A DNA stretch of 64,000 bases. It comes from Terriglobia bacterium (GTDB lineage Bacteria > Acidobacteriota > Terriglobia > Versatilivoradales > Versatilivoraceae). This document shows, one piece after another, positions 44,925 through 60,902 of the stretch (position 1 is the stretch's first letter; the number at the start of each line of letters is the position of its first letter). The position numbers and the translations under genes are program-made. Where the stretch lies: assembly GCA_041476565.1 (NCBI GenBank), contig JBGOTQ010000001.1:6280-70279 (forward strand), in the 5' to 3' direction. The notes under the pieces were generated by a model. It made no database searches. It was not told the origin of the DNA and worked only from the letters and a program-made list of their open reading frames with translations.

Positions 44925-45791
44925 ATGGAGAACACCGCCAATAGGCGCGTTCTGATAATCGGGCGTTGCCAGGCCGCCAGGCTCGGAGGCCGATGCGGCT
45001 TGGTGGTGCTCCTGTTGGCGGGCCCTCCTCCATTCCGTGCCGCTGCTCTCCACGATCCGCAAGATGTTTTCCCTCCGGGAGAAAAGCTAGTCTACCAAGT
45101 GCGATGGGATCCCCCCGCCTGGGCATTCTTCCTACCGCCCGTCACGGCAGGAGAGTTGACATTTCAGGTCCGACCCTTGAGCACCATCGATGGTCGGCAA
45201 GTACGACGAATCACGGTAGACGCCATCTCGTCAGGTTTTTTTCTTAAGATAGCCGGCATCTCCGTAAAGGATCATTTTGAATCGCTCATCGACCCGAAGG
45301 AATTCTGTTCCGTCAAGATGACTAAGGTCCTTCGAGAAGGCAAGCGGCAGCGGGATGTGTTTCTTACCTTCGACAGGGAGACTGGAATTGGACGATATCT
45401 GGCCTTCGACGTGAGCAAGTATCCGCGAGTTGCATTAAAGGACCAGCAGCTACAGGGCCTGCCTCACTGTGTCCAAGACGTCATTTCCGCCATCTATCTC
45501 ACAAGGCTTTACGACCTGAAGGTGGGTGTCGAGTCTCCCTTGACTATCAGTGACGACGGCGTGGTCAAGGAAGTGAAGCTACGCATCGTAAAACGGGAGA
45601 CCGTCGAAGCCGAAGCCGGCAAATACACGGCCCTGAGAGTCGAGGCCTTTTCGGTATTTGGCGGGTTGTTCCGACAAGGAGGTACCCTGATCGTTTGGGT
45701 CAGCGACGACGCCAAAAAAGTCCCAGTCCGGTTTGAAGCCAGCTTGAAATTCGGAAAGGTGTATGGATCGGTCAAGCGGTGGGGTGAGTGA
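44925..45791 (+). CDS. DUF3108-like protein
   Basis: It shows a DUF3108-type pattern (YQVRWDPPAWAFFLPPVTAGELTF ... VPVRFEASLKFGKVYGSV). Its stop codon overlaps the 3' end of the convergent tRNA-His by about 12 nt. Confidence 0.55.
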   Translation: MENTANRRVLIIGRCQAARLGGRCGLVVLLLAGPPPFRAAALHDPQDVFPPGEKLVYQVRWDPPAWAFFLPPVTAGELTFQVRPLSTIDGRQVRRITVDAISSGFFLKIAGISVKDHFESLIDPKEFCSVKMTKVLREGKRQRDVFLTFDRETGIGRYLAFDVSKYPRVALKDQQLQGLPHCVQDVISAIYLTRLYDLKVGVESPLTISDDGVVKEVKLRIVKRETVEAEAGKYTALRVEAFSVFGGLFRQGGTLIVWVSDDAKKVPVRFEASLKFGKVYGSVKRWGE

Positions 45792-45856
45792 TGGGGATCG
45801 AACCCACGGCCACTGGAGCCACAATCCAGCGCTCTACCAGCTGAGCTACACTCACC
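45780..45856 (-). tRNA. tRNA-His (anticodon GTG) with encoded G-1 and CCA
   Basis: The reverse complement is GGTGAGTGTAGCTCAGCTGGTAGAGCGCTGGATTGTGGCTCCAGTGGCCGTGGGTTCGATCCCCATCACTCACCCCA. It has a 7-bp acceptor stem, a D-arm GCTC/GAGC, an anticodon stem CTGGA/TCCAG with loop TTGTGGC, a T-arm GTGGG-TTCGATC-CCCAT, and a G-1:C73 pair typical of tRNA-His. Confidence 0.93.
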
Positions 45857-56004: not shown

Positions 56005-57117
56005 ATGTCTGACGCAGATTCAATTTATATGGGCCGTGCCCTGGAACTGGCGGCGCGGGGAATAGGACTGGCCAGTCCTAATCCGATGGTGGGTGCAGTC
56101 CTGGTCAATAACAAGGTCATAGTCGGTGAAGGCTTCCATACCTATGCCGGGTTAAAGCATGCCGAGGTGCTAGCCATCGAGCGGGCAGGAGAATCAGCCC
56201 GGGGGGCCACTCTTTACGTAAATCTTGAGCCCTGTAGTCATACGGGCAGGACTCCTCCCTGTTCGGAGTTGCTATTCCGTTCCGGGATTGTTCGGGTTGT
56301 GGCTGCCATGGAGGACCCCAATCCCAAGGTAGCGGGACAAGGGGTTCGAAATTTGAGACAGGGTGGGGTCGTGGTGTCCCTGGGCTTGTTGCAGCAAGAG
56401 GCGCAAAAACTCAATGAAGCCTTTTCTAAATATATTACCGTACGGCGGCCGTTTATAAGCTTGAAAGCAGGTATTACTTTGGACGGGAAGCTTGCAGACT
56501 TCCGGGGGGAATCCAAGTGGATCACCTCTGGGGAGGCCCGTCAGAGGGTTCAGCAATTGCGGTTCGAGAATGACGCCGTCTTGGTTGGAATTGGGACCGT
56601 GTTAAAGGACGACCCTCTTCTGACAGACCGGACCGGCCACCCTCGACGGAGACCGCTTGTGCGGGTCGTGCTCGATTCACGACTCCAGCTTTCCGTATTC
56701 AGCCAGTTAATCAAGTCCTCAATCCGGGGTGATATAATGGTGTTTTGCTCTCTGGGTCGGGATCCTCGTCGGGAAGCCGAACTAAAAGACCGGGGAGCCA
56801 ACGTCATCTTGGCGCCTGTGGCCACCGGGAAAATCCCTTTTGACTTTGTTCTTGAGGAACTGGGCCGACGCGAGATCACCAGCTTGTTGGTCGAAGGCGG
56901 CGCAGAGATCAACTATGAAGCGCTGCAGTCCCATCAGGTCGACAAACTGATCTTGTTCATGGCACCTAAGATTTTGGGGGGCAAGGACTCTGTACCCATG
57001 GTCGGAGGGACTGGCTTTGGTGAACTGCAGCACAGTCAAGTGTTTCAGTTTGCTTCTGTAGAGAGAATCGGGCCCGACTTGGCGATTGAGGCGTATCCCC
57101 CCAAAACCTGGACTTGA
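56005..57117 (+). CDS. ribD: bifunctional riboflavin biosynthesis deaminase/reductase
   Basis: HAEVLAIERAG...EPCSHTGRTPPC is the CMP/dCMP deaminase zinc motif. It is followed by a RibD C-terminal reductase domain. Confidence 0.9.
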   Translation: MSDADSIYMGRALELAARGIGLASPNPMVGAVLVNNKVIVGEGFHTYAGLKHAEVLAIERAGESARGATLYVNLEPCSHTGRTPPCSELLFRSGIVRVVAAMEDPNPKVAGQGVRNLRQGGVVVSLGLLQQEAQKLNEAFSKYITVRRPFISLKAGITLDGKLADFRGESKWITSGEARQRVQQLRFENDAVLVGIGTVLKDDPLLTDRTGHPRRRPLVRVVLDSRLQLSVFSQLIKSSIRGDIMVFCSLGRDPRREAELKDRGANVILAPVATGKIPFDFVLEELGRREITSLLVEGGAEINYEALQSHQVDKLILFMAPKILGGKDSVPMVGGTGFGELQHSQVFQFASVERIGPDLAIEAYPPKTWT

Positions 57118-57124
57118 ACCAATC

Positions 57125-57769
57125 ATGTTTACTGGGATTATAGAAGAAGTGGGCCAGATTCGAGAGCTTCGACTTACCGGGAAAACTGCCGAGATTCAGG
57201 TTGAAGCCCGGAAGGTCTTGAAAGGTCTGCAGCCGGGGGACAGCATTTCGGTCAATGGGGTTTGCCTCACGGTGCGAAGCTTAACAGGGGAGGGCTTTCA
57301 TGCGGAAATCTCTCGAGAGACTTTGGCACGGACCAGCTTTGCCAGATCTAAAAAGGGCGACTCCGTAAACCTGGAGCGGCCCTTGCTGCCGACCAGTCGC
57401 TTGGGCGGTCATTTTGTCCAAGGTCACGTGGATGCGATTGGGAAGGTGGAAAAGATCCAGCCGGAAGGGGAGTTTGCGGTCCACTGCTTTTCACTGCCAG
57501 AAGCTATTCTGCCCTATGTGGTTGAAAAAGGCTCCATTGCGGTCGACGGTGTCAGCCTGACTGTCTCTAAGCTTGGTTCCGGCCAATTCGAAGTTGCTCT
57601 TATCCCCCACACCCTTGAGAACACGAATCTAGGCGATCGACGGGCGGGGGACTGGGTCAACCTGGAGTGCGACATCCTGGCCAAATACGTGGAGTCATTA
57701 CTCAAGGCCAGAGAGAAATCGAAGAAGGCCCCCGTGACCTTGGAGTATCTGAGGGAGCAGGGGTACTAG
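57125..57769 (+). CDS. ribE: riboflavin synthase alpha chain
   Basis: [10 protein letters not shown]...SVNGVCLTV repeated in two lumazine-binding halves (AVDGVSLTV). Confidence 0.85.
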
Positions 57770-57929
57770 CCTCACACGATAAAGAGAAGGGCGAAATGAA
57801 GCAAAGGGGGGAGAAGGGTAATCTTTGGAGTTGAGGTCCTGGGACCCCAGCTTCCAACATCCGTCAGGGTCTATGAGGTTTGTTCTGCTACTGAAGGCAA
57901 CGGCCATTTGAAAGAATTGGGCAGTCCAA

Positions 57930-59054
57930 ATGTATTTCTCCACTATTGAAGAAGCCATCGAAGAATTCCAAGCTGGGCGGATGGTCATCATCGTAGACGA
58001 TGAAGACCGGGAAAACGAAGGTGACCTGACCATTGCTGCTGAGAAAGTTTCTCCAGAGGCCATCAATTTTATGGCTCGCTTCGGTCGTGGATTGATTTGC
58101 CTGGCCATGACTGGCGAGCGATTGGACGAGCTGCAGATTCCACTGATGGTGACGGAAAACAATTCCAATTATGGGACGGCTTTCTGCGTTTCCATTGAGG
58201 CACGCAGGAACGTCTCGACCGGCATTTCAGCAGCCGACCGGGCCACAACCATACTGACGGCCATCAGTCATGCCGCCAAGCCGCAGGACTTGGCGCGACC
58301 AGGCCATGTGTTTCCTCTGCGAGCCCGCAAAGGAGGAGTGCTGATGCGGGCCGGACAGACCGAAGCTTCCGTGGACCTGGCGCGGATTGCAGGGCTTTAT
58401 CCGGCTGGAGTGATCTGTGAAGTCATGAACGACGATGGAACCATGGCACGTGTGCCAGAACTTCAGGAGTTTGCACAGCGGCATCAATTAAAGATGATCA
58501 CCGTGGCCGACCTGATCAAACACCGGCTCCGGACCGAATCATTTGTGCAGCAGGTGGCGGAAGCTGAGCTGCCTACCCAATACGGGACCTTCCGGATGAT
58601 GGTCTTCAGCTGCGAGATTGATGGCGACACCCACGTGGCCTTGGTTTACGGGAAGATTGATCCGGAGAAGCCCGTTCTGGTCCGAGTCCATTCACACTGC
58701 CTGACGGGCGACGTCTTTGCATCGTCCCAGTGCCATTGCCGGGCCCAATTGGAGAAGTCCCTGGAGATGATTGCCCGGGAAGGGAATGGAGTCGTGCTTT
58801 ACATGCACCAGCCGGGCCGCGGTTTCGAGCTGCAGAGAGGTGAGAACCGCATCACCTATCATGGCATGGCTCACGTTGATGAAGAGGCCTACAGCATGAA
58901 GCGGGCCAAGCGCGATTATGGCACCGGCGCGCAAATCTTGTCGAAACTCAATCTCAGACGAATCCGTATACTCACCAACCATCCCCGGAAGCTGATCGGC
59001 CTGGAGGGCTATGGCCTCACCGTGGTGGAGCAAGTGCCGATCCGGATCTCCTGA
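57930..59054 (+). CDS. ribBA: bifunctional 3,4-dihydroxy-2-butanone-4-phosphate synthase / GTP cyclohydrolase II
   Basis: The DHBP synthase region is [11 protein letters not shown]. The GTP cyclohydrolase II zinc motif is [14 protein letters not shown]. Confidence 0.9.
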
Positions 59055-59063
59055 TGCCCCGGA

Positions 59064-59224
59064 GAGTGCAATTCAAAGTGCGACAGAATTAACTCATATA
59101 TTCACGGTTCGGGCGCCGCGGGGGCGCGGCGTCTCCAAGGACTTGGAGACGGGACGCCCTCGTCCCGCTTCCGGCAACACACCCTGGACACATGGCCTCT
59201 CCAGTCGCACTTTGAATTACACCC
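59064..59224. mobile_element. putative MITE-like non-autonomous element (161 bp) with 21-bp terminal inverted repeats and 9-bp flanking direct repeats
   Basis: The left end GAGTGCAATTCAAAGTGCGAC (59064-84) matches the reverse complement of the right end GTCGCACTTTGAATTACACCC (59204-24) at 19 of 21 positions. The element is flanked by identical TGCCCCGGA at 59055-63 and 59225-33, which look like a target-site duplication. The interior holds three GC-rich hairpins and no ORF. Confidence 0.45.
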
Positions 59225-59333
59225 TGCCCCGGAAATCATGTTGACATTCCGGGCTGAAGCCGTCAGACTTTAATGTTTCCAAATCTATCGATCTGCACAC
59301 ACCTCTTAGAGGAGAAACAGGCCAAAGAAAGCC

Positions 59334-60902
59334 ATGGTGACCCTGCCGCGGCTGAATAGTCGCTATGAGATTCGAGATGTTCTTGGACAGGGGGGAATGG
59401 GGATTGTTTACAAAGCTTATGACTCAGTGATTCGGAGAGAGGTGGCTCTTAAGACGCTTCGGGACGCCCCTGATCCTGCTGCTCTTGAGACTTTCCAGAA
59501 GGAATGCGGAGTGCTGGCCTCCATGGCCCACCCCAATACGGTCGAGATTTTTGACCTGGGGGAGTTTGAAGAAAACGGGACCCACAAACCCTATTTCGGC
59601 ATGCCCTTGCTTCCCGGGATGACCCTGGAGGCCTTGATTCGAATGGCCAGCCAACGGCTGACCGTGGAGCGGGTGGTAGAGATTATCACCCAAACATGCC
59701 GGGGGCTGCAGGCCGCTCATGAACGCGGGCTGATCCACCGAGACCTTAAGCCCATCAACATTTTTGTTCTGGATGACGATTCGGTGAAGATCATCGACTT
59801 CGGGGTTGCGCACATATGCGACAGCCGCACGACTATGGGTTTGAAGGGAACCCTGGCGTACATGTCGCCTGAGCAAATCGAGATGAAACCGCTCTCCCCC
59901 CTGTCCGACCTCTTCTCCCTGGCAGTCGTGGGTTACGAAACGCTGGCACTCCGCCGTCCCTTTCAAGGCAAGACCCAGAGCGAGATCGTGGAGGCCATCC
60001 TGCATCAAATCCCGCCACCTGTATCGGAATTCAACCCTGCAGTCAATTCTTTGATCAGCCGGGTCATTCACAAGGCCTTGGCCAAACAACCCTTTCACCG
60101 GTTCGCCTCCGCCAGGGAATTTGCTGAGATCGTACAAAAGGCGCTTCGCAATGAAAGGCTCGAAATCTTTGATCCGAGCCGGATTCAGCCCCGCGTTCAA
60201 CGGGCTGCCCGGGCATTTGAGCAGGAAGATTACCAGTTTGCCGCCGCGATCCTGGGGGAACTGCTGGCGGAGGGATTGCCGATCAGATTCAGAAAAGCAT
60301 CGGAACGGTGGATATGGTATGGAGTCGCTCTGCTGTTGGTTGTGATGCTGGGCGGAATCTGGGCCCATCGGCGTCGTCCTCCTTCCACGGCGTCGCAGCC
60401 TACCCTGCCGAATCCTGCGCCTTCACACCCCATTCGTCTGGACGTATTGACGACCCCGCCCGGGGCGAGGATATTCATCAATGATCGAGTGCGCGGCACT
60501 GCCGACTTGGTCTTGGAGCTGTTGCCAGGTTCGCATCAGATTCGCGCAGAGGTAGAGGGTTACGTTCCGACTACCACCCCGCTGGAGCCTAAGCCCGATT
60601 CGGCATTGCCCCCGATGGAAATTGTCCTTCAACCAGCGTCTGGAGCAAGCACTTCCAGTACTCAATCACCTTCAGAATCGGGCGCACAGCAAACTCAAGG
60701 TTCCTCTGCCTCCCTGGCGAAAAGAAGGAAGGCTTTGGAGACTCGGGCCCCTGTCTCCAGCTTGGCTGTTGAGTCGGCGCCACTCCCGGGCACTCTGCGG
60801 GGCTATCTCCAACTGAAGCGCTCTCCTGCCAGCAGCCAGGTGGTGTTGGAAGGGGGGGAGAACCGCAACCCCGCCTGCTCACTGAAGACCGCATGGAATT
60901 GA
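59334..60902 (+). CDS. Ser/Thr protein kinase with TM segment and extracytoplasmic PEGA domain(s); C-terminus apparently truncated by frameshift
   Basis: The Hanks kinase motifs are GQGGMGIVYKA, VALK, HRDLKPINI and DFGVA. A TM helix (WIWYGVALLLVVMLGGIW) and a PEGA domain (LDVLTTPPGARIFINDRVRGT...GSHQIRAEVEGYVP) follow. A second PEGA-like start is cut off at the stop just after a G7 run. Confidence 0.8.
   Translation: MVTLPRLNSRYEIRDVLGQGGMGIVYKAYDSVIRREVALKTLRDAPDPAALETFQKECGVLASMAHPNTVEIFDLGEFEENGTHKPYFGMPLLPGMTLEALIRMASQRLTVERVVEIITQTCRGLQAAHERGLIHRDLKPINIFVLDDDSVKIIDFGVAHICDSRTTMGLKGTLAYMSPEQIEMKPLSPLSDLFSLAVVGYETLALRRPFQGKTQSEIVEAILHQIPPPVSEFNPAVNSLISRVIHKALAKQPFHRFASAREFAEIVQKALRNERLEIFDPSRIQPRVQRAARAFEQEDYQFAAAILGELLAEGLPIRFRKASERWIWYGVALLLVVMLGGIWAHRRRPPSTASQPTLPNPAPSHPIRLDVLTTPPGARIFINDRVRGTADLVLELLPGSHQIRAEVEGYVPTTTPLEPKPDSALPPMEIVLQPASGASTSSTQSPSESGAQQTQGSSASLAKRRKALETRAPVSSLAVESAPLPGTLRGYLQLKRSPASSQVVLEGGENRNPACSLKTAWN

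Follow-up and report, generated by a model that had tools for sequence, protein, structure and literature searches.

Classical bacterial MITEs, among them the Correia elements, RUP, Nezha and Chunjie, are derived from IS families other than the one considered here. The elements reported in this work are like them, by description only, in being short and non-coding and in having IS-matching inverted repeats, target duplications, many copies, intergenic locations and hairpin potential; they differ in that the present family appears to inherit a promoter-proximal choice of target. Such target choice has been reported for TnGBS, ISLre2 and 13 ISs of the ISKra4 group, which insert 15–17 bp upstream of the −35 box of sigma-A promoters, with both insertion orientations for elements that have near-perfect inverted repeats (Guerillot et al. 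2014, PMC3942029). That survey does not have Acidobacteria among its host phyla, and it gives a −1 frameshift as a feature of the ISMich2 group, not of the promoter-targeting ISKra4 group.

Here we analyse a 161-bp element lying between ribBA and a protein kinase gene in the window, the whole 64-kb stretch of Terriglobia DNA under study. We conclude with high confidence that positions 59064–59224 are a MITE moved by an ISKra4-family transposase that picks sites 16 bp upstream of promoters. This conclusion is carried by direct observations of the element's structure, its family, an IS with the same ends (the partner IS), empty sites in relatives and a statistical association with promoters at 16 nt.

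The ISKra4 group (ISKra4, ISAcce1; p-MULT 4; PMC3942029) resembles the partner IS in its length of around 1.5 kb, its transposase of around 440 aa with NF033572 as best match, its near-perfect inverted repeats with a GGGTGCA... tip, its 9-bp direct repeat and its insertion 16 bp upstream of a sigma-A −35 box in either orientation. In the part of Table S1 of that study available to us, ISAcce1 is given a 9-bp direct repeat and a GGGTGCAT... tip, and ISAcas3 a 9-bp direct repeat. Unlike the ISs of this group, the element in the window is a derivative of 161 bp with no coding capacity, and a −1 frameshift divides the transposase of the partner IS. A transposase in two ORFs, likewise restored by a −1 frameshift (here at A8–A9 in the IS copies L048, L050/L051 and L073), is found in the ISMich2 group, whose elements are not among the promoter-targeting ISs of PMC3942029. 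TnGBS and ISLre2 (p-MULT 3) are alike in inserting 15–17 bp upstream of a sigma-A −35 box, but they have a transposase of another family (the ISLre2 HMM gave the partner transposase only 56 bits), insert in a fixed orientation and occur mainly in Firmicutes.

The element in the ribBA–kinase spacer

The features of the locus, in window coordinates, are as follows.

57930–59054, + strand: ribBA, bifunctional DHBP synthase / GTP cyclohydrolase II (Pfam)
59055–59063, no strand: target-site duplication, left copy, TGCCCCGGA (repeat finder)
59064–59224: MITE, 161 bp, non-coding
59064–59084, + strand: left terminal inverted repeat, GAGTGCAATTCAAAGTGCGAC (repeat finder, core-match scan)
59085–59203, no strand: non-coding MITE interior, not related to that of the IS
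59204–59224, − strand: right terminal inverted repeat, GGGTGTAATTCAAAGTGCGAC reading inward, the promoter-proximal end
59225–59233, no strand: target-site duplication, right copy, TGCCCCGGA, a perfect match to the left copy
59241–59269, + strand: putative sigma-70-type promoter of the kinase gene, not part of the element
59334–60902, + strand: Ser/Thr protein kinase gene with Pkinase and PEGA domains (Pfam)

The upstream gene is intact. Its ORF contains DHBP_synthase (PF00926, 6e-88) and GTP_cyclohydro2 (PF00925, 7e-54) domains, and its TGA stop at 59052–59054 directly adjoins the left copy of TGCCCCGGA; the downstream kinase gene is itself untouched by the insertion. The first-pass annotation had placed a 161-bp segment with 21-bp terminal inverted repeats immediately after this stop, flanked by perfect 9-bp direct repeats, and its coordinates and sequences proved correct. 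The arms at 59064–59084 and 59204–59224 are identical at 19/21 positions; in the extension made by the repeat finder they reach 22 nt at 91%. With up to three mismatches allowed, the 19-nt repeat core occurs at these two sites only in the 64-kb window; 0.01 core matches were expected from shuffled windows, and two or more matches were seen in 0/100 shuffles. The probability that a perfect 9-bp direct repeat would stand flush with both repeat tips by chance is around 4e-6.

With its terminal inverted repeats, a length below about 500 bp and no transposase coding, the window element has several of the properties that define a MITE. The sole ORF crossing it is a 77-aa frame overlapping the 3′ end of ribBA. 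It is single-copy within the 64-kb window (blastn, with all family members as queries), and tblastn detected no transposase related to that of the partner IS encoded there. Its interior contains GC-rich hairpins at around 59114–59131, 59131–59150 and 59151–59166. All three had been described in the first-pass annotation, which was one base off in its parse of the first; this is a 7-bp stem, CGCCGCG/CGCGGCG, with a GGGG loop. The fold of the whole element has an energy of −79.3 kcal/mol (z = −4.8 versus shuffles), and in the centroid structure nothing remains but the arm-to-arm pairing and the central hairpins.

Some features of the neighbouring genes are recorded here as separate observations. 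The rib cluster, ribD-ribE-ribBA (window 56005–59054), is followed by the kinase gene and not by ribH, and Rfam at gathering thresholds found no FMN riboswitch across the whole window, the sole match being a tRNA at 45783–45855. The architecture of the kinase gene is variable. The window kinase has 522 aa, whereas its orthologue in the MAG DATKMG01 (L064:4242-7125) is called as 1342 aa; residues 1–314 align at 94% with that orthologue and the next match comes only at residue 933, so that around 620 aa of the DATKMG01 kinase, with faint TPR-type Pfam matches, are missing from the window gene. In the more distant locus L056, the gene call at the kinase position is without a kinase domain.

Empty sites, family copies and the partner IS

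The first-pass annotation had read the segment as a MITE-like insertion and had suggested looking for further copies, for a full-length IS with the same ends and for an empty site in relatives. That reading is borne out by the family copies, by an IS with the same ends and by empty sites, each described below.

Empty sites were sought on contigs that encode other members of the 90%-identity protein cluster of the window RibBA, with the spacer gap placed by pairwise alignment with cheap gap extension after MAFFT had misplaced it. Two contigs were left out: L055 (ribBA 84.5% nucleotide identity, RibBA protein 94%) ends 5 nt past the stop, and L067 (JBGPHY01) has a different downstream gene, its spacer not being orthologous. 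The closest relative, L068 (ribBA 97.9% nucleotide identity), reads TGA-TGCCCCGGA-AATCCTG-TTGACA, with a single target copy and without the element. A single copy of TGCCCCGGA is likewise present in the empty site of L070 (93.4%), and the sites of L069 (96.4%; target TGCCCCCGGA) and of L063–L066 (around 90%; target TGCCCTGGA) are also empty. The latter group, which includes DATKMG010000308.1 from the Terriglobia MAG GCA_035541995.1, differs from the window by a single clean alignment gap of 170 bp, corresponding to the 161-bp element plus one 9-bp duplication. Finally, taking the element and one duplication copy out of the window sequence makes it collinear with L056 (ribBA 79%). The orthologous site is therefore empty in seven contigs at 90–98% ribBA nucleotide identity, as well as in L056 at 79%. 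Judged from these sequences, the insertion is very recent or still polymorphic, because contigs with 93–98% identical ribBA keep the empty site, and it post-dates around 2% sequence divergence.

The family was surveyed by scanning one genome per GTDB species (596 Gb) for the repeat core GTGYAATTCAAAGTGCGAC. Exact matches were found at 46 loci, 42 of them in five Acidobacteriota/Terriglobia MAGs and several at contig ends; one further match, from a MAG with the label Acidimicrobiia, is likewise a genuine copy. Three others, L008 (Bdellovibrionales), L016 (Hyphomicrobium) and L025, were rejected as lone 19-mers in coding sequence with neither a GGG tip nor a partner arm, and we treated them as chance matches because a 19-mer with one degenerate base should turn up around nine times in 596 Gb. 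The inverted repeat is accordingly present at 43 loci of Acidobacteriota-type MAGs, of which a mismatch-tolerant search for paired arms showed around 26 to be complete elements of 114–427 bp. The consensus inverted repeat of the family is GGGTGYAATTCAAAGTGCGAC. Perfect 9-bp duplications, differing in sequence, flank the elements at L009, L012b, L015, L027, L033 and L045, with near-perfect ones at several other loci. Copies number at least 20 in CAWDMN01, 9 in DATKMG01 and 7 in JAHBSF01, with one in the 64-kb window. Clustering separates several subfamilies that have only their ends in common. The 161-bp subfamily of the window copy also comprises L005, L022, L033 and L041, all from DATKMG01 and 86–93% identical; this MAG therefore holds 161-bp copies elsewhere while its own ribBA spacer is empty.

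Several observations on individual copies are given for completeness. The copy in the MAG labelled Acidimicrobiia (L009:2731-2945, on the 1.12-Mb contig CAWBAT010000006.1) is a MITE of 215 bp whose inverted repeats are perfect, as is its 9-bp duplication, tggcgaatg; it is 90.7% identical to L010 in the Acidobacteriota MAG CAWDMN01, and the GC content of its locus, 52%, is similar to that of the Acidobacteriota loci. Either the element has passed between phyla or the MAG is mislabelled. At L039:3209-3420 and L013:872-1100 the hairpin modules GGAGACGCC...GGCGTCT and CGGGACG...CGTCCCG are tandemly duplicated or reordered, which suggests that the MITE interior may have grown modularly. In the MAGs JAKEER01 and JBGPHY01, seven contig ends (L018, L021, L026, L037, L040, L042 and L046) stop 98–134 nt, or around one assembly k-mer, inside IS ends. 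The IS/MITE family accordingly breaks assemblies, and full-length copies are probably absent from MAGs.

The copies at contig ends are of two types, one of which has a conserved protein C-terminus (...LRTCRAN..WN.YW...AA*) lying 17 nt inside the repeat. A metagenome scan with this C-terminus/repeat junction recovered the full-length IS in three copies.

L048:1604-3084: partner IS copy with the same inverted repeats
L050:1-1482: partner IS copy with the same inverted repeats
L051:429-1910: partner IS copy with the same inverted repeats and a perfect 9-bp duplication, caggccatt

These copies are 1481–1482 bp long, and element bases 3–23 (59066–59086) are identical to their ends. The similarity between MITE and IS is confined to the terminal 21–23 bp, the interiors being unrelated. 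Among the contig-end and full-length loci, no other type of transposase was seen beside these repeats.

The transposase coding sequence is split at an A9 run, where an 89-codon ORF (MRP...SRKEKK) continues in the −1 frame (NLYWYSRFGK...). When fused, the two parts give a 441-aa protein that matches NF033572 (ISKra4 family) over profile positions 19–422 of 422 with E = 1.5e-59. This is by far the best family, ISLre2 being next with 56 bits, and the score of 202.2 bits is 2.8 below the NCBIfam curated cut-off of 205. Database homologues of around 440 aa (39–53% identity) are named ISKra4 family transposase. We would thus file the partner IS in the ISKra4 family sensu ISfinder and NCBIfam, marginally under threshold. 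Closer homologues are mostly 330–370-aa calls covering the second ORF alone, which suggests that the split is conserved. Indeed, the same arrangement is present in the divergent copies L048 and L050/L051, and in P0197, a 53%-identical transposase from loci L073 and L071, an A8 run stands at the same position (SRKEKK/RLYW), within an IS with the inverted repeat GGGTGTAATCAAAAGTGAGAC and the 9-bp duplication TCAGTATTT. The frameshift sites are located as follows.

L048:1733-3058: transposase coding sequence, A9 run at around L048:1993-2001
L051, minus strand: A9 run at around IS position 391
L073:793-800: A8 run

The −1 frameshift at these A8–A9 runs is probably programmed ribosomal or transcriptional slippage.

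Insertion sites and promoters

The putative kinase promoter consists of a −35 box, TTGACA, at 59241–59246, a 17-nt spacer and a −10 box, CAGACT, at 59264–59269. Its −35 box starts 16 nt from the right repeat tip at 59224. The −10 box is weak and the site was not listed by a separate promoter scan. The −35 box reads TTGACA in L056, L063–L066, L068 and L069 and TTGACT in L070, and the −35/−10 pairs of empty-site relatives include TTGACA/CAGAAT (L064), TTGACA/CAGACT (L068) and TTGACA/TAAACT (L056). We infer that TTGACA/CAGACT is a working promoter in the window.

To measure the association across the family, sigma-70-like sites were scored out of 12 against an E. coli-type consensus at 80 unique repeat-flank junctions. 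With a score of at least 9/12, the −35 box lies exactly 16 nt from the tip in 10/80 junctions, compared with 0.04 expected per offset; with a score of at least 8/12, 13 lie at 16 nt and 6 at 17 nt, compared with 0.17 expected per offset. Offsets besides 16–17 nt gave at most two matches each, with no second peak, and in an initial promoter-offset scan the binomial test had given P = 4e-16. At 16–17 nt, an E. coli-type promoter can be recognised in only around a third of elements; counted per element, the 16-nt peak exceeds the 20% criterion of PMC3942029. The matches at 16 nt include the window copy and the IS copies L050 and L046. Among the IS copies, the offset is seen at the right end in L050/L051 and at the left end in L046 and L073, and the 53%-identical IS relative in L073 lies 16 nt from a TTGACA-17-TATACT promoter reading toward rpsT.

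The site of the window element would thus have been set by the −35 box of the kinase promoter, 16 bp downstream, and not by the ribBA stop codon; the element is flush with the stop because only 16 nt part the stop from TTGACA in the ancestral allele. In the mechanism we propose, the MITE shares its 21–23-bp ends with the 1.48-kb ISKra4-family IS, whose transposase would be a Mutator-like DDE enzyme of group p-MULT 4. Supplied in trans, this transposase would bind both inverted repeats, pick a site whose near edge is 16 bp upstream of a sigma-70/sigma-A −35 box, here that of the kinase promoter, and integrate the element with a 9-bp staggered cut, so that TGCCCCGGA becomes duplicated. That the partner IS moves the MITE in trans is suggested by the identity of the repeats, the common duplication length and the common target preference. 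The insertion is probably near-neutral, since both genes and the core promoter are intact. An outward hybrid promoter formed from the repeat was considered and rejected: the right repeat contains TTGAAT without a usable −10 box at 17 nt (atcatg).

Alternative readings and significance

If the segment were instead a conserved structured spacer, that is, a palindromic rib-operon terminator, cis-regulatory RNA or small RNA that never inserted, its strong fold, its position in the ribBA 3′ UTR and the GC-rich hairpins kept among the 161-bp copies would all be accounted for. Such an origin is very improbable and, on the alignments described above, refuted by the empty sites: the segment is precisely absent from seven contigs of close relatives and from L056, with one 9-bp target copy retained, and other copies stand at unrelated loci. 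The first-pass annotation had also suggested that the element could serve as a terminator or structured RNA as well, and this found no support. A terminator scan of 58800–59500 found no hairpin with a T-run on either strand, and no T-run follows any of the hairpins; Rfam gave no match to the element at gathering thresholds, and a permissive scan of 58900–59400 gave only a chance match (E = 0.62); and among four full 161-bp copies, compensatory changes were seen at 0/53 predicted pairs. A terminator or functional-RNA role for the element is therefore unsupported; the stable hairpin may have a passive effect on read-through transcripts.

A 9-bp duplication is not unique to ISKra4, being also produced by IS1, the IS903 group of IS5, the IS10/IS50 groups of IS4 and IS256. 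Because the duplication is not specific and the interiors of MITE and IS are unrelated, one of these families might have moved the MITE, yet we regard this as very unlikely: the protein encoded by the IS with identical 21–23-bp ends is of the ISKra4 family, IS and MITEs have both the 9-bp duplication and the 16-nt promoter offset in common, and no other transposase type was seen beside these repeats. The promoter offset is, moreover, reported for TnGBS, ISLre2 and the ISKra4 group and was not found for IS256 (PMC3942029). Least probable of all is a chance combination of inverted and direct repeats, or an assembly artefact, in the window. It is favoured by the single copy in the window and nothing more, and it is refuted by the 0.01 matches expected from shuffles, by homologous elements in independent assemblies from several projects and by an indel relative to the relatives of exactly 161 + 9 bp.

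We therefore return to a MITE mobilized by an ISKra4-family transposase with promoter-proximal target choice. Literature searches found no description of MITEs from ISKra4 or ISLre2, or of such a family in Acidobacteria. In the parts of PMC3942029 available to us, neither the main text nor the supplementary text mentions MITEs or Acidobacteria, and the inverted repeat of the family is not in the supplementary tables. It is conceivable, although we hold this more tentatively, that this is the first described MITE family to inherit sigma-A promoter targeting from a Mutator-like (ISKra4-family) transposase, and that the partner IS is part of a large and as yet unnamed clade, associated with Acidobacteriota, that joins an ISMich2-like frameshift to ISKra4-like targeting.

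For riboflavin and kinase biology the insertion has no demonstrated effect, as both genes and the core promoter are intact. As an example of transposition it is textbook-clean, the occupied and empty alleles differing by exactly 161 + 9 bp at around 98% flanking identity, and this clean allele pair shows recent transposition in uncultured soil and sediment Acidobacteriota. Contig breaks in several MAGs are likewise accounted for by the family repeats. The insertion is a useful and clean case of principles that are already known; what is added is the mechanism of site choice. It extends the published promoter targeting of TnGBS, ISLre2 and ISKra4 to non-autonomous elements, to a phylum absent from the hosts of the 2014 survey and to a lineage of transposases in which a frameshift is conserved. 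If the more tentative reading above is true, dozens of MITE copies per genome would, in uncultured Acidobacteriota, be natural tags set 16 bp upstream of promoters that are active. Copies of the family can be used as markers of sigma-A promoters in genomes without transcriptome data.
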